Position numbers and translations under genes: made by a program. The notes below the pieces were generated by a model. The model searched no databases and was not told where the DNA came from. It saw nothing but the letters and a program-made list of their open reading frames with translations. Positions 9,777 to 64,000 of a stretch of 64,000 bases of DNA are shown piece by piece. Numbering within the stretch: the stretch's first letter is position 1; the number at the start of each line of letters is the position of its first letter. The stretch is from Thermodesulfobacteriota bacterium (lineage in GTDB: Bacteria > Desulfobacterota > SM23-61), in the NCBI GenBank assembly GCA_049699975.1, contig JBNAWB010000001.1, positions 24,534 to 88,533 of the forward strand, written 5' to 3'.

Positions 9777-9923
9777 GGAAAATATTTCTCTCGGGAAGTT
9801 ATTTAATTGGAAATTATTGCCTAAATTAAAAACAATTCCGGTTTACTTTCCCTCCTTAAACTTCTAACTAATTAAAATCATAAAATATTTTTTTAACCCA
9901 CCCTTAGGATTTTTTCTTTTTTT

Positions 9924-9939
9924 TGGCATTTTAATTGCT
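9924..9939 (+). promoter_or_regulatory. Sigma-54 promoter: TGGCATtttaaTTGCT
   Basis: Exact -24 GG to -12 GC spacing. The site lies 16 nt upstream of the fliK start. Confidence 0.65.
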
Positions 9940-9954
9940 CGAGCAGAAGGCATC

Positions 9955-11571
9955 ATGAACATTGGGGAAAGTGTTCTAAATCTTAAATCAGAGATTATAA
10001 AAAATAATTTTTCAAATTTCGCCCAGGAGGGAGACAGTTTTTATTCATTGGTATTGGAATCATTGGAGGAAGTGCCCGAAGAGGCCAAGAAAGAAGCCAA
10101 TTCATTTCCTTGGGCGACAATTTTCTTCCCTTTGTTTAATACGGAGACATTTCCCATAGAGATAAAACCTGAAGGCCAAGAGAATAGAAAAGAAAGTAGC
10201 CCCGCGGAAGACATTTTAAAAGAGAATATGCTTCCCGAAAAAATAAATTTAGGAAAGAGGCCCACTCCAGCGGAATCCTTATCTGAAAATTTTATGACTC
10301 TCCTTAAGGAAATAAGTACAGTTTATCCCTATCCTGCAAAAGATTCGCTTCCCGGGCAGGAAGCAGCTACAGATCAGCTTGGGGAGTTAGAAGCTAACGG
10401 AGAAGAGGCCTCCCAAACCTTGGGCATAAAGGAAAACAAAATTAGATTATTCTTGGCAAGACAGAATGGGCAAGAGCAAATGGATATAGGACAAAAGGCG
10501 CCTGAGAAAATAGATCCTTTCTCCATCATAAGGGAAACCCCGCTCAATTTATCTTCGGCGGAAAGTAAGGCCATAAAGGGGGCCAATGGAGATAATCCAA
10601 ACTTTAATTCCTTAAAGAGGGCGGATAAAGAGGAGATATTTGTAGGCCGCAAGGAGCCAGCTATTATGGAAACTTTGTTAACCAAAGAGAAAATTAAAGA
10701 GGCGCTTATGGAGATGCCGGAAGAGAAATTAAAAAATGAACAAGCAAATTTTGCCTTCTTGAACAAGGAAAAAGTAGGCTCAGACAAGGAAGAATCACTC
10801 TGGCAAGATGTGGTGATAAGAAATGGCTGGCCATTTTCGGTGAAAGAAGAAAGCAGATCGATTTCCCATTTAATGAAGGAGAATAAATTTGAGCAATCTA
10901 AGTTGTGGGGAAAAGATTTTGGGGAAAACTTTGGCGGCAGGACCGATCCAGATCTCGATAATTTTCCAGCCTTAGATAAAAATTTGACTTTTTCTCTTTT
11001 TAAAGGAGAAAAAAGGGGAAATACGAAATTAGATTATTTTCCCCATTTTTCTCCTGAAGTCTCGGGCAAAGATCCCCTTTTAGGCCGAGATAACTTAGCC
11101 GAAACTGGAGGAGTCTGGGGCAAAGAGAATTTAAGCCAATGGCGGCCAGGAGAAACGGAAATTTATAAACAAATAAGTCAAAGAATAATATGGTCGATCA
11201 AAAATGATCAGGAATTAATAAAGGTTACTTTGGAACCGCCGCATTTAGGCAATATCTACATTGAGGTGACCCGGGAGAAAGAGAATATCAGGGCTAAAAT
11301 ATTGACTGAGAACCCACTCACTAAAGAATTAATAGAGCATAATTACTGGCCAATTCAAAAAATCATAGAGAAAGAAGGCTTCAGATTAGAAAGATTTGAC
11401 GTCTTTTCCCCATTAGATATGAACTTATCGGATGGGGCTAAAGGGGAGCACTTGTCCTCCAAAAGTAAAGATAGAGTTTACCATTCAGCTGGAGAAATTA
11501 AAGACCAAATCTCCTTAGAAAATAGCCTTCCCTTAGAAACCAATAATGGGGGCATAAATATCCTTATTTAA
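9955..11571 (+). CDS. fliK: Flagellar hook-length control protein FliK
   Basis: Long, low-complexity acidic N-terminal region and a conserved C-terminal Flg_hook domain (VTLEPPHLGNIYIEV). Confidence 0.8.
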   Translation: MNIGESVLNLKSEIIKNNFSNFAQEGDSFYSLVLESLEEVPEEAKKEANSFPWATIFFPLFNTETFPIEIKPEGQENRKESSPAEDILKENMLPEKINLGKRPTPAESLSENFMTLLKEISTVYPYPAKDSLPGQEAATDQLGELEANGEEASQTLGIKENKIRLFLARQNGQEQMDIGQKAPEKIDPFSIIRETPLNLSSAESKAIKGANGDNPNFNSLKRADKEEIFVGRKEPAIMETLLTKEKIKEALMEMPEEKLKNEQANFAFLNKEKVGSDKEESLWQDVVIRNGWPFSVKEESRSISHLMKENKFEQSKLWGKDFGENFGGRTDPDLDNFPALDKNLTFSLFKGEKRGNTKLDYFPHFSPEVSGKDPLLGRDNLAETGGVWGKENLSQWRPGETEIYKQISQRIIWSIKNDQELIKVTLEPPHLGNIYIEVTREKENIRAKILTENPLTKELIEHNYWPIQKIIEKEGFRLERFDVFSPLDMNLSDGAKGEHLSSKSKDRVYHSAGEIKDQISLENSLPLETNNGGINILI

Positions 11572-24940: not shown

Positions 24941-25154
24941 ATTTTTGGCCTCTCTTCCCTCTCTTAGAAGAGCCTCCTAATCATGGAAATTTTTAGGCAA
25001 AAAATTCCCGCCGTTCATTAAGGGGGAATTTTTTTCCGCCTATTTTTCCAGCGATGGTCGCAGGAGGGAAAAATCTTATTAAAAAATAATAATGATTTTC
25101 ATAAATTAGAAGGTTTAAGGCGTGAAAACTAAAAAACATCTATAAGAAAGACCG

Positions 25155-29401: not shown

Positions 29402-29848
29402 ATGGAAAAAGGGCCGATACAAAATGTAAAAAATTTACCCAATCTCCTTTCCCCTATGGACAATTTTAATAAAGGGAAATTGGATGAAGAAAGAGCTAAA
29501 AAAGTTTGTCGAGAATTTGAATCCTTATTTTGGAAAGAAATCTTCAAATTGATGCGGAAAATGACCTGGGGAAAAGGATGGGGGAACAATAGCGAGTCAG
29601 GAAATGAAATATACCAAACCCTTTTAGAGCAAGAAGTGAGTAGAACCCTGGCTCAGAAAAAAGGATTAGGGATAGGAGAGCTAATTTATAAACAGATTAC
29701 CAATCAGCAAAAAAATAAAAGTAACCTTTCACTCTCCCCTCTTCCCAGCGGGGAGAGCCCCTTACCTTCTCCGCTCCTTAGTGGGGAGAGCCCCTCACCT
29801 TCTCCTCTCCCCATTGGGGAGAGGCAAGGTGAGGGGGAATTAAAATGA
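29402..29848 (+). CDS. flgJ: Flagellar rod-binding protein (FlgJ N-terminal domain only; no muramidase domain), with repeat-encoded C-terminal tail
   Basis: Rod-binding motif FESLFWKEIFKLMRK...GNEIYQTLLEQEVSRTLAQKKGLGIGELIY. The C-terminal 40 aa (SPLPSGESPLPSP... x3) are encoded by tandem hairpin repeats at 29732-29842. Confidence 0.75.
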   Translation: MEKGPIQNVKNLPNLLSPMDNFNKGKLDEERAKKVCREFESLFWKEIFKLMRKMTWGKGWGNNSESGNEIYQTLLEQEVSRTLAQKKGLGIGELIYKQITNQQKNKSNLSLSPLPSGESPLPSPLLSGESPSPSPLPIGERQGEGELK

Positions 29849-32725: not shown

Positions 32726-32728
32726 ATT

Positions 32729-32853
32729 ATTAATGAGCGCATTAAATAAATGACATATGCTGTTCTTAACCCCTTATCCTAACCCTCTCGCCAGGCATGG
32801 GGAGAGGGGAAGGTAAGGGGAATAAGTGTAAATATTTAATCGCTCCGAGTAAT
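32729..32853. mobile_element. MITE-like repeat, copy 1 (imperfect 21-bp terminal inverted repeats tattaatgagcgcattaaata / tatttaatcgctccgagtaata; internal ctctcgcc...ggggagagggg hairpin)
   Basis: Near-identical to 62075-62221 over both arms. Located between flgL and csrA. Confidence 0.7.
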
Positions 32854-32888
32854 AAATAGAGCAGTCATTTTTGCCAGGGAGGGTGAAA

Positions 32889-33118: not shown

Positions 33119-33553
33119 TTGAGAGTCACCACTTCTCGTTTTGGAACGATAGACATTGAGGAAAAACAGGTTATTCGCATGCCGGAAGGCATGATTGGTT
33201 TTCCTGATTTTCGAAACTATGTTCTCTTAGAGCATAAAAAAGAATCTCCTTTTTGGTGGTGGCAGTGTCTAGATGCACCTTCTTTGGCTTTTGTCCTTAC
33301 AGATCCTTTGCTCTTCAAACCAGATTATGAAGTACAAATAAGTCCGGAAGATGAAGAAATATTGCAGGTTAAAGAGGCGGCAGGAAACTTGAAAACTTTA
33401 GTCGTCGTTAATATATCGCGAGACACTCCACCCATCATTACTGCTAATCTCCTTGGCCCATTGGTAATCAATGTGGCTAAGAGACTCGCCCGCCAAATTA
33501 TTCAATTCCAGAATTCTTATTCCCACCGTTTTCCCCTTCCCTTAAGGTTATAA
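33119..33553 (+). CDS. fliW: Flagellar assembly factor FliW (CsrA antagonist)
   Basis: FliW family (FGTIDIEE..VIRMPEGMIGFPD...YVLL). TTG start. Confidence 0.85.
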   Translation: MRVTTSRFGTIDIEEKQVIRMPEGMIGFPDFRNYVLLEHKKESPFWWWQCLDAPSLAFVLTDPLLFKPDYEVQISPEDEEILQVKEAAGNLKTLVVVNISRDTPPIITANLLGPLVINVAKRLARQIIQFQNSYSHRFPLPLRL

Positions 33554-33582
33554 GGGAGGTCAGGCAAGTCCGCAGGGCGTGG

Positions 33583-33648
33583 CCATCTCTTTAATTTCAA
33601 TGAGTTACGAGATCGCCGCGGTCTGCATGCTCCCTCGCGATGACCTTA
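33583..33648 (+). repeat. GC-rich structured intergenic repeat, family 2, copy A
   Basis: About 85% identical to the reverse complement of 50180-50250. Contains the palindromic core gctccctcgcga. Confidence 0.6.
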
Positions 33649-33745
33649 CTACACAGTCTCAATGAAGAGAGGATTAGAGTGAGGGGATAAATTATAAGTA
33701 AGGTAATTTGGGCATGGGGTCGAGTTGTATCAAAGAAGATGAAAA

Positions 33746-34060
33746 TTATTTCAAAATCTCGGCTAAAAATTCTTTAGCCAACTTTTCTGATAATGCCTGG
33801 ACATCAACTTGATATTTTCCCTCCGCAATCAATTCTTTCAATTTCGCAATTTTTGCGGATCTTTGTTCAGGTATGCTTTGGAGAAAAGAATAAATTTGTT
33901 GCAGCTCTTTAGATGCCTGAGAAAGTTCCACTTTGTCGCTTGCTTCCCCAGGAGATTTCTTAGCATCTAAGGCTACTTTTCTTTGTTCCGCCGAAGTAAG
34001 TTTTTCGGATTGGGTTATTACTCCGGTCGCTTGATCGGGTTTTACATTCGTCACTGTCAT
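33746..34060 (-). CDS. flgM: Anti-sigma-28 factor FlgM
   Basis: About 104 aa with the conserved FlgM C-terminus (RSAKIAKLKELIAEGKYQVDVQALSEKLAKEF). Confidence 0.8.
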   Translation of the reverse strand: MTVTNVKPDQATGVITQSEKLTSAEQRKVALDAKKSPGEASDKVELSQASKELQQIYSFLQSIPEQRSAKIAKLKELIAEGKYQVDVQALSEKLAKEFLAEILK

Positions 34061-49788: not shown

Positions 49789-49989
49789 TCATTCAATAGG
49801 AAGAGATGAATTAAAAACGCGGCGGCGGAATTCGATTACCCGGCGAATAATTTCGACCACTTTTTCTTGGACAGCAATTTTTTCCCCATTAGCCATGGTA
49901 ATTATAGTATCCGGGGTTTCTTCCATAAAAATTATTAAATCAGGATTGATGACTAAAGGAGTATTATTTAAGCGAGTTAAGCTGATCAT
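49789..49989 (-). CDS. flbD: Flagellar protein FlbD
   Basis: MISLTRLNNTPLVINPDLIIFMEETPDTIITMANGEKIAVQE matches the FlbD family. AGGAGGG Shine-Dalgarno before ATG; the upstream in-frame extension to 50139 is rejected. Confidence 0.8.
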   Translation of the reverse strand: MISLTRLNNTPLVINPDLIIFMEETPDTIITMANGEKIAVQEKVVEIIRRVIEFRRRVFNSSLPIE

Positions 49990-50011
49990 GGCAAAATAAT
50001 CCCTCCTGCAT

Positions 50012-50037
50012 TTTGCTATTGATATCGGAAGATTGTT
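50012..50037 (-). promoter_or_regulatory. Sigma-28-type promoter for flbD-motA-motB: TAAG-N14-TCCGATAT (read on - strand)
   Basis: Same architecture as the flagellin promoter. Confidence 0.45.
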
Positions 50038-50179
50038 GGCGAACTTAAATTGGAGAACAGCAATAAATACTAAAAAAATAATAATTTTTTTTAATGCCCA
50101 AGCTAAAAAGTGGAGAACTTCATGACGCCTCAAGAACATTTCCTCCTTACCATCTCCTCTCCTTAGGGAAACTATATTG

Positions 50180-50250
50180 TAAGGTCCTCGCGAGGGAGCG
50201 CAGGGACCGTGGCGATCTCATAACGCTTTGAAATTAAAGAGATGGTCAGG
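50180..50250 (-). repeat. GC-rich structured intergenic repeat, family 2, copy B (inverted relative to copy A)
   Basis: The reverse complement aligns to 33583-33648. It is embedded in a GC-rich island (about 50180-50340) within an AT-rich divergent intergenic region. Confidence 0.6.
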
Positions 50251-50524
50251 CTTCGCTACCTCAAGTGCGGAGTCCCTCGCCATGACGGAAAATGCGTCGC
50301 GACCCAATCTCAGTGGGCAGAGGCAGGGAAAGGGAAGTCATTGAAAATTCCAATAATAATCTCACTCTTCAGTGAGAGATTAATAATTTTTATTGCTCCA
50401 TTTAAGAAAATTAAAATTCACCCGATATTTTAACCAGACTTGGATGAAAATAAATTCTCTTCAAGAAAAGAATAAAAAGAAGAAGGAATTTTTATAAAAA
50501 ATTACCATTTAGAGGAAAGAAGGA

Positions 50525-53709: not shown

Positions 53710-54231
53710 ATGAGTCAATTAGTAACTTCAGTGAATCAAGCAATAAAAGAAATAACCAATCGCGAAGGGAAATATTTAACTTTTTCTCTCGGCGCGGAAG
53801 AGTATGGAATAGGTATTTTAAAGATTAAAGAGATTATTGGGATGCTGCCTATTACCGCGGTTCCCCGCACGCCACCTTTTGTAAAAGGAGTAATTAATTT
53901 GCGGGGAAAGGTTATTCCGGTGATTGACTTACGCGTTAAATTCGGCATGGAAGACAAAGCTTATACCGAGAAGACCTGCATCATCGTAGTTGAGATCAAA
54001 GGGAAAGATAATCCAATTCTTATGGGAATAGTAGTCGATGCTGTTTCGGAGGTTTTGAATATCAAAGCAGGGGAGATTGAAGAAACCCCTCGATTGGGGA
54101 CTAATCTCGATTTAGATTATATTTCTGGAATCGCGAAGATTAATGGTGGAGTAAAAATTTTATTGGATATTGATAAAGTATTGAACCAAGAAGGAATTAA
54201 TTTTTTAACTCAAAAATCCCATAGTGGATAA
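53710..54231 (+). CDS. cheW: Chemotaxis coupling protein CheW
   Basis: Single CheW domain of 173 aa. Confidence 0.9.
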
Positions 54232-54257
54232 ATAAGTTTATAAATAAAGGTGGAGTT

Positions 54258-55884
54258 ATGTGGGCTAAATTAAAGCTTTCCACAAAGATTTTGCTATTAG
54301 GAGTCGTTATTATATGCTGTTTCTCCTTAGTCTTTGCTTGGCTGATACCAAAAGTTAGAAGCAATATGTACGAGGCTAAGTATCAGAAAACAAAACATAT
54401 TGTTGAATCTGCCTGGGGTGTATTAGACCATTACGCCAAGCAAGCAAAGGCAAAAGTGCTTTCCGAGGAGGAAGCAAAAAGACAAGCTAAAGAAGTCATT
54501 AAGAATCTGCGTTATGACCAAGATGATTATTTCTGGATTAACGACTTAGAGCCAAGAATGGTTATGCACCCTTTTAAAAAGGAGATGGAGGGGCAGAGTT
54601 TATCAGATTATAAAGATCCTAACGGTAAAAAGTTATTTGTTGCTTTTGTAGAGGTTTGTAAGAAATCGGGTGAAGGTTTTGTGGATTATATGTGGCCCAA
54701 ACCTGGGGCCACTAAGCCCGACCCCAAAATTTCATATGTCAAATTACTCCCCGAATGGGGATGGATTATCGGTTCTGGAATTTATATTGATGATGTGGAA
54801 AAAGAAATAAATCAAATCCTTTATGTAATAATCGGCACAGTGATAGCTGTTACAATAGGGGGGCTTTTTTTGGCTTATTTAGTGGCCCGCTTTATTTCCC
54901 GATCTATTAATCGAGTTGCTCAGGGTCTAACAGAAGGTGCAGAGCAAGTGGCCTCGGCATCAGGCCAAGTTTCCTCAGCCAGTCAAATCTTGGCTGAAGG
55001 GGCATCAGAGCAAGCAGCCGGAATTCAAGAAACTTCTTCTTCCATTGAAGAAATGTCTTCTATGACGCGCAAAAATGCGGAAAATGCCAATCAAGCCAAT
55101 ATATTAGTGATGGAAACATCACGGGCTGTAGAAGAGGCCAATCAATCCATGAAAGAATTAACGCAGTCTATGAGTGAAATTTCCAGCGCCTCAGAAGAGA
55201 CAGGAAAGATTATTAAGACTATAGATGAAATTGCCTTTCAAACTAATTTATTGGCCTTGAATGCGGCGGTAGAAGCAGCTCGGGCTGGAGAAGCTGGTGC
55301 TGGTTTTGCAGTTGTGGCCGATGAGGTGCGCAATTTAGCCATGCGGGCAGCAGAAGCTGCTAAAAACACAGCTAATTTAATCGAGGGAACAGTTAAAAAG
55401 GTTCGTAATGGATCAGAAATTTTGGCGAAAACTAACTAAGTCTTTGCCAAAGGTGGCCAGCAGTTCAAAAAAGGTACAGGAGTTAGTTGGGGAAATTGCG
55501 GCCGCTTCCCAAGAACAGGCTCAGGGCATAGAACAAATTAATAAAGCAATTTCCGAGATGGATAAGGTAGTGCAAAAGAATGCGGCTTCTGCCGAAGAGT
55601 CTGCGGCGGCGGCAGAGGAGATGAATGCGCAAGCCGAAACAATGAAGGGGTTTGTATTTGAGCTTATGAATTTGATGAATGGGCAGAATGGAAATAGCCA
55701 AACGTCTTGGGAGTTGAAAAAAGTGACTCAGGGCGAAGGACCTCTTGGAAGTCAAGACCAGAAGGGTGGTAATGGAAAAAGAAAGGTGCGTTCTATAATC
55801 AGCTGCAAGAAAGGAGGGAGGCAAATAGAAGCAAAGAAACCAGAACAAATAATCCCCATGGAGGGAGATTTTAAAGAATTTTAA
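54258..55884 (+). pseudogene. Methyl-accepting chemotaxis protein (single-Cache sensor) disrupted by in-frame TAA (55437-55439) plus +1 frameshift (~55452)
   Basis: Two ORFs (54258-55439 and 55408-55884) together reconstruct a full MCP when aligned to the MCPs at 56479 and 62707. Expected ...KTNEVFAKVASSSKKV; observed KTN*VFAKGGQQ. Confidence 0.7.
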
Positions 55885-62044: not shown

Positions 62045-62074
62045 GAAGCAAATCTGCTGGCCAGGCTAAGCGAT

Positions 62075-62221
62075 ATTAATGAGTGCATTAAATAAATGAC
62101 ATCTGCTGTTCTTAACCTCTCACCTCGGTACGAGTCGATTCCGACCTAACCTTCTCCCCACGCATGGGGAGAGGGGAGGATGAGGGGAATGATTGTAAAT
62201 ATTTAATCGCTCGGAGTAATA
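62075..62221. mobile_element. MITE-like repeat, copy 2
   Basis: Same TIRs and internal ggggagagggg hairpin as 32729-32853, with a longer internal segment. Confidence 0.7.
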
Positions 62222-62235
62222 CTTTTTCTTAGACT

Positions 62236-62640
62236 AATGAAAATTATGGGATTGAGATTTTGAAGGTTAAGGAGATTATCAGGATGGTGCCGATACGTTC
62301 CGCACACTTCTTTGTTTTTAAAAAGAGTTATCAATTTGCAGGGGAAGGTAATTCCAGTAGTTGATTTGCGGCTTAAATTTGGGATGGAAGAGGTGGAGCC
62401 TACGGAGAAGACTTGTATTGTGGCAGAGGTGAAAGGTGAAAAAGATAAGACGTTAGTGGGGATCGTGGTGGATTCCGTTTCAGAAGTTTTTGAATATTAA
62501 AGCTGGGGAGGTTGAGGAGACGCCGGCTTTTGGAGCGAAGACGGATACAGACTGTATCATGGGGATGGCCAAGATGAACGGAAATTTAAAGATCTTCTTA
62601 AATATTTATCAGATCCTCAATGAAATAAATAAAAATAATT
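62236..62640 (+). pseudogene. Decayed cheW paralog (N-terminally truncated at the MITE boundary, multiple frameshifts/stops)
   Basis: The translation matches CheW 53710 in blocks (GIEILKVKEIIRMVPI | VINLQGKVIPVVDLRLKFGMEE..EKTCIV..VKGE.D..LVGIVVDSVSEVF | KAGEVEETP), but these blocks lie in different frames. Confidence 0.7.
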
Positions 62641-62706
62641 AACAGGTCGATAAAAAGATTATAACGCCCTTCTTTAGAATTTAACGATTGAAATAAGGAG
62701 GATTTT

Positions 62707-64000
62707 ATGGTCAAAAAAATTTTTAGATTAGATACTATTAATAAGAAGTTCATGATTCCAACCTTAATGTTAGTTGTAATTTTGCTCTTGGGGTTAGGAA
62801 CGATTTTGGTTATGAACCATTATTTTTCTACAAAATCTTTAATGGAATCAAAAGCGAATTTTTTATCAACTTTCCTTAAAGAAATTAGTACCCCTTATCT
62901 CAGTAATTATGACTATCGCCCGTTAGAAGGCTTTGTTCAAGAAGCGTGTAAAGACCCCGAGATAGCTTTCGTTATTTATTACGATGATCGGAATAATCCT
63001 GTAACAACGAGCGTAAAAGAGCCAACGGATACTTCTTCTTTACTGCTTTACAGACATGAGGTAAAAAACTCTGAGGGCAGGGTTGTGGGCTCTTTTAAGA
63101 TGGGTTATAAAAAAAATGTGCTTTCAGAAATTTTGCAAGGAGGAATATTTAGAATAGGTTTGAGCATCCTGATAGCTATGGGCATAATGGCCGTAGCGCT
63201 CACATTGCTTATCCGCAATATCGGCCGATCTTTAAAAGACATTTTTAAAGGTCTAAATGAGGGAATTGATCAAGTAGCATCAGCATCTGCTCAGATTTCT
63301 TCAGCCAGCCAATCTATGGCGGAGGCAACTTCAGAACAAGCAGCGGGAATTCAAGAGACTTCTTCTTCGCTTGAAGAGATGACTTCCATGACAAAGCAAA
63401 ATGCGGAGAGCGCTAATCAGGCAAACAATTTGATGATGCAGACAAGTAAGGTTGTAGAGGAAGCAAACCAAGCAATTAAGGAATTAATTCAATCAATGAA
63501 CGAGATTTCAAAGACTTCTGAAGAGATGGCCAAGATAATCAAGACTATCGACGAGATAGCTTTTCAGACTAACCTTTTGGCTCTTAATGCAGCCGTAGAG
63601 GCGGCACGAGCTGGAGAAGCGGGGGCTGGTTTTGCCGTGGTAGCTGATGAAGTAAGAAACTTGGCTATGCGCGCTGCGGAGGCGGCAAAGAATACAGCCA
63701 GCTTAATTGAAGAGTCGGTTAAGAAAATTAAAAATGGCTCTATCATTGTTACAAAGACCAATGAAGCATTCGAGAAGGTTTCTGTTAGTTCCAAGAAAGT
63801 GGCCGAGCTCATGGCTGAAATAACAGCAGCTTCTCAAGAACAGGCCCAAGGAATTGAGCAGATTAACAAAGCAGTAGCAGAGATGGATAAAGTAGTGCAG
63901 AGGAATGCGGCTTCGGCAGAGGAGTCAGCTTCGGCAGCGGAAGAGATGAATACACAGGCTGAAACAATGAAAGGTTTTGTAGAGGAATTAATGGCTTTAG
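62707..64000 (+). CDS. Methyl-accepting chemotaxis protein, 5' portion (continues beyond window end)
   Basis: AGGAGG Shine-Dalgarno, TM, a periplasmic domain, TM, HAMP, and an MA domain highly similar to the MCPs at 54258 and 56479. There is no stop before the window edge. Confidence 0.85.

Follow-up and report, generated by a model that had tools for sequence, protein, structure and literature searches.

The closest described counterparts of the repeats considered here are the BIME/REP clusters of enterobacteria, REPINs and MITEs. In E. coli, REP sequences are known to act as 3'-end barriers and stabilisers of transcripts, and the L motif of the BIME-1/RIP element binds IHF; we know of no case in which REPs produce direct repeats at their junctions. 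A classical MITE is about 50-600 bp long and carries terminal inverted repeats matching those of a parent insertion sequence. REPINs occur in tens to hundreds of copies, and RAYT is a tyrosine transposase of the IS200/IS605-like kind, a type of transposition from which junction duplications are not expected. Structurally, REPINs are REP doublets that form hairpins and are mobilised by RAYT transposases (PMC3337134, PMC3116915), the REP ends being conserved and the spacer free to vary (PMC3337134).

The DNA analysed here, hereafter the window, is a 64-kb stretch lying wholly within a flagellar/chemotaxis cluster, as do both copies of the repeat under study. A repeat search of the window identifies these as an inverted pair of 97 nt, 79% complementary, with copy A at 33577-33673 on the + strand and copy B at 50155-50251 on the - strand; BLAST aligns the two at 80.8% identity over 99 columns (E 2e-19). 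The core of copy A common to both spans the end of a left arm, an apex, a right arm and the start of a hairpin resembling the other repeat family of the window (family 1), and the corresponding core of copy B is recovered by repeat search, alignment and BLAST. The initial annotation had described a 66-nt core at 33583-33648, inverted in copy B at about 85% identity, in a gene context between convergent fliW and flgM. Both statements hold: the alignment contains about 10 differing positions, fliW ends at 33553 and flgM occupies 33746-34060 on the - strand. Its view of the pair as a genuine second repeat type, intergenic, GC-rich and, in copy A, hairpin-forming (z -3.4), also stands, GC content being 0.52 at 33546-33684 and 0.53 at 50145-50300 against a window background of 39%. 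The palindrome it reported is only partly so: the octamer cctcgcga is itself imperfect, TCGCGA is palindromic, and CCTCGCGAGG in copy B is a perfect 10-mer palindrome.

Conservation between the copies is uneven. The apex is the best-conserved part, with the block CCATCTCTTTAATTTCAA identical at 18 of 18 positions, and the left arms are the least conserved, being about 50% alike. With up to three mismatches allowed, CCATCTCTTTAATTTCAA matches twice in the window against 0.23 expected, and the arm motif CTCCCTCGCGAKGACC three times against 0.19 expected (a count reached by none of 100 shuffles); the third of these matches, at 50272-50287, is the inverted partner of copy B's own right arm. Substitutions between the copies show no codon periodicity and every reading frame is interrupted, on which grounds a coding remnant was ruled out. 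Six-frame translation of the block and the core likewise yields short open stretches, and the translated frames have no real protein relatives. Within the same population, contig L001 differs from the window by an A to C change at 33603, in the copy A apex, and contig L128 has a single mismatch in that same stretch. The C variant at 33603 agrees with copy B and disrupts an apical base pair. The 97-nt core of copy B shows no difference by BLAST in L146 and L147, two contigs of the same organism.

Read as RNA, copy A folds into a long imperfect hairpin (unit 2) at 33546-33645 on the + strand, with left arm 33546-33589, apex 33590-33608 and right arm 33609-33645, its base overlapping the fliW stop codon and the last two codons. 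The minimum free energy is -44.9 kcal/mol (z -3.43), and 2 of 200 shuffles fold equally well. The left arm is degenerate yet still pairs. The arm motif itself is only weakly palindromic (TCGCGA). Folding also delineates the tail, a family-1-like hairpin CCTTACT...AGTGAGG at 33644-33684 (+). Copy B ends in an equivalent hairpin, CCTTAC...GTAAGG, at 50145-50184 (-), formed by the inverted repeat 50145-50162 / 50167-50184 and containing the family-1 arm motif, GGAGAGGAGATGGTAAGGAG at 50143-50162, with one mismatch. In copy B the right-arm motif CTCCCTCGCGAGGACC recurs inverted, with three mismatches, as the left-arm motif GTCCCTCGCCATGACG at 50272-50287 (+), and the arms themselves form an inverted repeat of 14 nt, 86% complementary (50184-50197 / 50273-50286). 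The order of units is thus equal in A (+) and B (-), the long hairpin unit being followed directly by a family-1-type hairpin.

A BIME-like mosaic, unit 2 and then a family-1-type hairpin, is accordingly found in both copies. The mosaic REP-type element proposed earlier is therefore a fair description, except that the family-1-like tail had been assigned to copy A, whereas it occurs in both and matches better in B. The likeness to the BIME/REP clusters of enterobacteria extends to an extragenic location, the combination of different palindromic units, GC-rich hairpins, and a position between convergent genes and at transcription-unit ends; in addition, the AT-rich central motif between inverted arms recalls the L motif of BIME-1/RIP. 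There are differences, however. The repeats have no sequence similarity to BIME/REP and lie in another host phylum, the hairpin unit is about 100 nt as opposed to 35-40 nt in REP, no GTAG/CTAC signature is conserved in both copies, and the block carrying copy B has a 10-bp junction direct repeat. The comparison with REPINs is similarly mixed. An extragenic location and presence/absence between relatives are REPIN-like, as would be a hairpin of about 90-100 nt if it is indeed built from two inverted 16-nt motifs around a spacer. Conservation, however, peaks at the apex and is lowest in the left arm, the opposite of conserved ends, and two copies are seen where REPINs number hundreds, with no RAYT gene seen in the 64-kb window. 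Structured single-stranded DNA of the sort that serves as IS200/IS605-type substrates was considered and rejected, with DNA-fold z values of -1.26 (A) and 0.05 (B).

Relatives at several distances were available for comparison. Window proteins are identical to those of the MAG GCA_049969335.1 (Thermodesulfobacteriota) and of the ENA assembly ERZ3623746. A sister population, sampled in many JGI, ENA and Logan assemblies, has FliW at 83-84% and MotA at ~99-100% identity; in more distant relatives the figures are 75-77% for FliW and 95-96% for MotA, and L152 has FliW 85-86% identical. Gene order is unchanged in the sister population and in the more distant relatives. We considered whether the 16.5 kb between the inverted copies might be an invertible segment, and rejected this: the intervening gene order is equal in relatives without copy B, and 80% identity over 97 nt makes a poor recombination substrate.

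Alignments of the cheA-flbD spacer show that relatives lack one contiguous block of ~290-300 nt containing copy B, while the flanks align well. We place this block at 50090-50381 (-), ~292 nt, with termini TTTAATGCCC... and ...CAGTGAGAGATT. It is bounded by two exact copies of the 10-mer direct repeat AATAATTTTT, at 50080-50089 and 50382-50391, which resemble a target-site duplication and which also appear in the repeat search with a spacing of 299; in our reading of the alignment, AATAATTTTT is single at the empty site of relatives. The spacer measures 534 nt in the window, and L146, from the same organism, has 536 nt. Contigs of the sister population have 230 nt (L139-L142, L150) or 231 nt (L144), and the more distant L148 has 224 nt. 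Altogether the block is missing from 10 related contigs, nine from the sister population plus L148; there is no BLAST trace of it in L143, L145 or L151, and L143 and L151 are also without it in the alignments. Because the flanks are AT-rich and of low complexity, the block ends are uncertain by ~35 nt: MAFFT shifts the gap by ~35 nt in one direction and leaves the repeat imperfect, and whether the duplication is perfect thus varies with the alignment chosen.

These features invite comparison with MITEs such as Correia of Neisseria, RUP, ERIC and Nezha, which are likewise below 300 nt and non-coding, with an AT-rich target, a junction direct repeat, an empty site in relatives and insertion beside promoters, and whose transcripts form hairpins. 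The size, the lack of coding capacity and, for copy B, the junction duplication and empty site all agree with a MITE. Unlike a MITE, the 292-nt block is without terminal inverted repeats, and no insertion sequence was found that could be its parent. A repeat search of 50040-50400 found no such repeats at the two ends of the block; the inverted pairs there are internal only (e.g. 50145-50156 / 50239-50250), apart from a weak subterminal TTCA(A)TGAC pair. Given the lack of terminal inverted repeats, and with no REPIN-like pattern of conserved ends and free spacer, the elements can be likened to MITEs and REPINs and are not proven members of either.

The block is missing from L148 too, so that a single insertion in the lineage of the window gives a more parsimonious account than a pair of deletions; the polarity we favour, insertion as opposed to deletion, hangs on this one more distant relative. 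At the level of sequence comparison, copy B is shown to have entered the window's lineage within a ~292-nt block flanked by a 10-bp direct repeat of its AT-rich target. A point against reading this as mobility is that an empty site with a single short direct repeat can also arise by deletion. By BLAST, the central 97 nt of the block alone resembles copy A, and ~200 nt have no similarity to the copy A locus, so copy B was not simply copied from A and at least one other source copy is called for; the donor of the block would then be some other, larger copy.

The insertion leaves both flanking predicted sigma-28-like promoters intact. The pattern TAAG-N15-CCGATAT has exactly two matches in the window against 0.28 expected, and these are divergent and lie outside the element: one at 50022-50047 (-), upstream of flbD-motA-motB and adjoining the insertion, the other at 50403-50428 (+), upstream of cheA and adjoining the insertion on its other side. 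The flbD-side promoter is kept in all relatives aligned and the cheA-side promoter in the sister contigs L139, L144, L150 and L151; the more distant L148 has the -10 element TCGATAA instead of CCGATAT on the cheA side. Two annotation effects were noted in this region. The insertion of copy B provides an in-frame AAGGAGGAAATG at 50139 (-), opening an ORF at 49789-50139, as a result of which the annotation of L147 calls a 116-aa FlbD where a 66-aa protein is called elsewhere; the longer call is probably a gene-calling artefact. Separately, in L143 (Ga0137716_10001087) the region expected to hold cheA, 1210-1706, carries a pair of short ORF calls, 73 aa and 62 aa long, and the sequence upstream of the cheA-flbD spacer does not align with other contigs.

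Copy A follows flgK, flgL, csrA and then fliW, in a fliW-flgM spacer that in the window is 192 nt long. The sister population has 566-596 nt at this place, L137 has 403 nt and L138 has 297 nt; the content of the spacer differs among all four lineages, and a fifth, L152, has a different fliW 3' flank. Of copy A, the sister population retains the left arm at 33556-33588, 82% identical, together with the tail sequence from 33646 on, and between these it has a different 58-nt stretch and ~370 nt of other repeats, including a family-1-like piece. The tail from 33646 is orthologous to the flgM 3' flank of relatives, 106 nt aligning with L129-L132 at 81-82% identity and 61 nt with L137 at 87%; this flgM-proximal tail is all that L137 and L138 have in common with the copy A spacer. 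The core of copy A is absent or replaced in every other lineage sampled. Contigs end inside copy A in three cases, from two assemblies of the same population, at window positions 33617, 33621 and 33632. This fits a repeat or a hard-to-sequence hairpin, with the caveat that the assemblies are low-coverage (~1.4-3x per contig names), which may account for the breaks at copy A, and that in the same MAG ordinary genes are cut by contig ends too.

Other differences were seen in these spacers. Within the fliW-flgM spacer, one 30-nt hairpin module distinguishes the near-identical sister strains L129 (10800-10830) and L130 (10800-10860). L137 has a 160-nt csrA-fliW spacer (9841-10000), whereas csrA and fliW overlap in other lineages, and this spacer has a 27-nt GC-rich piece in common, inverted, with the fliW 3' flank of L152 (1076-1164). 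The shared piece points to further small repeat modules that may move between spacers.

Family 1 varies between relatives as well. Its arm motif, GGAGAGG-N4-GGTRAGGGG, has six matches in the window against 0.72 expected; the sites include 50143-50162 in copy B, the flgL-csrA spacer, 62168-62187 and three in 29758-29837. A direct repeat of the family, 32728-32854 / 62074-62221, is 76% identical by gapped BLAST over ~148 nt, with ungapped blocks of 77 nt at 88% and 47 nt at 94%. Family 1 fills the flgL-csrA spacer, which is 163 nt in the window versus 38 nt in L129, and the sister lineage has no copy between flgL and csrA. Three tandem hairpin modules of the family, at 29725-29845, lie inside the 3' end of a flgJ-like (rod-binding) ORF (29402-29848). 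Homology of its product to the sister-lineage protein stops at residue 103, beyond which the modules replace the C-terminus and encode a 45-residue extension, compared with 12 residues in L129. Family 1 is thus shown to behave as copy B does, in being present or absent between relatives.

No further copy of the unit 2 core came to light. There are two in the 64-kb window, and fuzzy motif searches and BLAST found no additional copy in ~200 kb of relatives' flagellar loci, a near-match at 11723 in L129 being rejected as an unrelated small hairpin. In a genome collection that does not include the source genome, the pattern CTCTTTAATTTCAAN{20,50}CCTCGCGA gave four matches, all attributable to chance; among the at least 120 matches listed for the 18-mer apex in a metagenome collection, all were chance matches of 20-28 nt; two patterns had no match in viral contigs; and blastn with the 341-nt copy B region had none in plasmid and phage collections. 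Looking for spurious ORFs called from other copies, the translated core returned no candidates in a word-indexed search and three low-complexity multi-stretch matches in an exhaustive one. No transposase gene was found within the 64-kb window of flagellar and chemotaxis genes. As only two copies are seen, to call them a family is to argue indirectly.

The small copy number speaks for a one-off event, in which illegitimate insertion (filler DNA or patch repair) would have supplied the cheA-flbD spacer with unrelated DNA and ~100 nt copied from the fliW-flgM spacer. Such an event would leave just two copies, as are seen in 64 kb, and no copy was found in ~200 kb of relatives' flagellar loci; the missing terminal inverted repeats suit it, and the 10-bp junction repeat could be microhomology. 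We nevertheless regard it as unlikely. The stretch of block with no counterpart at the copy A locus speaks against it, and A and B have diverged by ~20%, as much as the sister lineage has at the copy A tail. Moreover, family 1 and the further modules show similar presence/absence in several spacers and lineages, so this lineage clearly has active small repeats.

From these comparisons, copies A and B are probably two old, diverged copies of a short, non-coding, GC-rich palindromic repeat, mobile or selfish and similar to MITE, REP and BIME elements. The element would be a mosaic in which the unit 2 hairpin (arms CTCCCTCGCGAKGACC, AT-rich apex CCATCTCTTTAATTTCAA) is fused to a unit 1 hairpin CCTTAC...GTRAGG. 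It would presumably be non-autonomous, moved by a transposase encoded elsewhere in the genome, and its copies, being neutral in 'safe' intergenic sites, would be retained at them.

Might the repeats instead be genes? On this account they would be small regulatory RNA genes, or cis-acting RNA, of the flagellar regulon, acting for example with CsrA-FliW through the conserved apex, with both loci transcribed. The location of both copies in the flagellar/chemotaxis cluster, with copy A directly after csrA-fliW, is suggestive, as are an apex that stays 18/18 identical while the stems drift, the good RNA fold of copy A and the small hairpin with a T-rich run at the end of the copy B block. Yet of the 37 base pairs in the hairpin of copy A, 24 are kept in copy B and 13 broken, with only two compensatory changes. 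The fold of copy B is no better than that of shuffled sequence (z -1.0), and when A, B and the ortholog from the sister lineage are folded jointly, the consensus reaches just -8 kcal/mol. A conserved fold backed by covariation, which the initial annotation proposed to check for, is not borne out by these figures. The Rfam check that it called for gave no match in the window at the gathering score, and chance-level matches only at E<=10 at both loci (Rfam 15). Neither element contains a sigma-70-like promoter or a sigma-28-like one. Copy B is absent from close relatives with the same genes and promoters, and copy A's core is likewise absent or replaced elsewhere. An RNA gene is thus very improbable, and the suggestion of a small-RNA gene family fails on the want of an Rfam match, promoter, U-tract terminator and conserved fold and on copy B being a lineage-specific insertion; an ordinary small mobile repeat is most likely.

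One particular case is a CsrA sponge. CsrA-sequestering small RNAs of the CsrB/RsmZ type display many GGA motifs in hairpin loops. Here the 192-nt copy A spacer holds three GGA on the + strand and two on the - strand, at the window background of 0.016 per nt, which upholds the earlier remark that GGA is not enriched and further weighs against an RNA role. Around copy B (50087-50385, 299 nt) there are eight and seven on the two strands, slightly above background. A sponge was rejected on these counts.

A second functional possibility, compatible with a mobile origin, is that the element has been co-opted to form a bidirectional barrier between convergent fliW and flgM, to bind a nucleoid protein such as IHF through its AT-rich apex in the manner of BIME-1/RIP, or to do both. 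An intrinsic (Rho-independent) terminator consists of a GC-rich stem-loop followed at once by a U-tract. We found no U-tract terminator on either strand of 33554-33745, and the flgM terminator hairpin is degenerate in the window although clean in L137, whose tail forms CCCTCTC..GAGAGGG followed on the flgM strand by TTTATTTTT, a T-run. Both points favour a barrier; against it, the copy A hairpin itself has no U-tract and relatives manage without the element. Copy B lies between divergent promoters, so there is nothing there to terminate, and a weakly terminator-like small hairpin with a T-rich run at 50360-50377 ends the block. The bidirectional terminator-insulator suggested earlier is thus not supported as a general role, and at copy A it may be an incidental effect. 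As to a putative protein-binding site, also suggested earlier, the apex is the best-conserved part and both apexes fit the relaxed IHF-like pattern WWTCAANNNNTTR; this pattern, however, occurs at chance frequency in the window (16 observed, 17.3 expected), and an IHF site at the apex was rejected. Co-option in either form seems to us distinctly unlikely. If A and B are mobile repeats as we favour, the transcribed hairpin of copy A might still act incidentally at the 3' ends of the csrA-fliW and flgM transcripts, as a barrier or by stabilising them, a proposal prompted by the lack of a canonical terminator in the spacer and by the effect of REP in E. coli.

A less ordinary version of mobility can also be entertained. 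The block, with its 10-bp duplication, lack of terminal inverted repeats, stacked palindromic units, terminal hairpin and AT-rich spacers by sigma-28 promoters, might represent an undescribed type of non-autonomous element, or a mobile cassette whose small RNA or protein-binding site rewires flagellar control; we rate this too as rather improbable. Greater weight would attach to the elements only if an unusual transposition mechanism or a flagellar regulatory role emerged. As ordinary mobile repeats, they would be one more routine entry among the small repeats catalogued in bacteria, from a poorly studied uncultured lineage of Thermodesulfobacteriota. Even so, they make the spacers of a flagellar cluster hypervariable among close relatives and could thus serve as strain markers, and copy A, inside which contigs from two assemblies end, may fragment short-read assemblies. 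They can also mislead gene callers, as with the false start of the 116-aa FlbD, due to the insertion, and the flgJ-like protein lengthened by 45 residues, due to family 1.

Two further features of the window were noted. A short intergenic inverted repeat pairs 9847-9893 with 25081-25127 (48 nt, 81% identity). The region 62045-63563, 1.5 kb without a long ORF in a greedy ORF map, is ~70% similar to the cheW/MCP region at 53797-55237, and may be a diverged or decayed paralogous copy of it.
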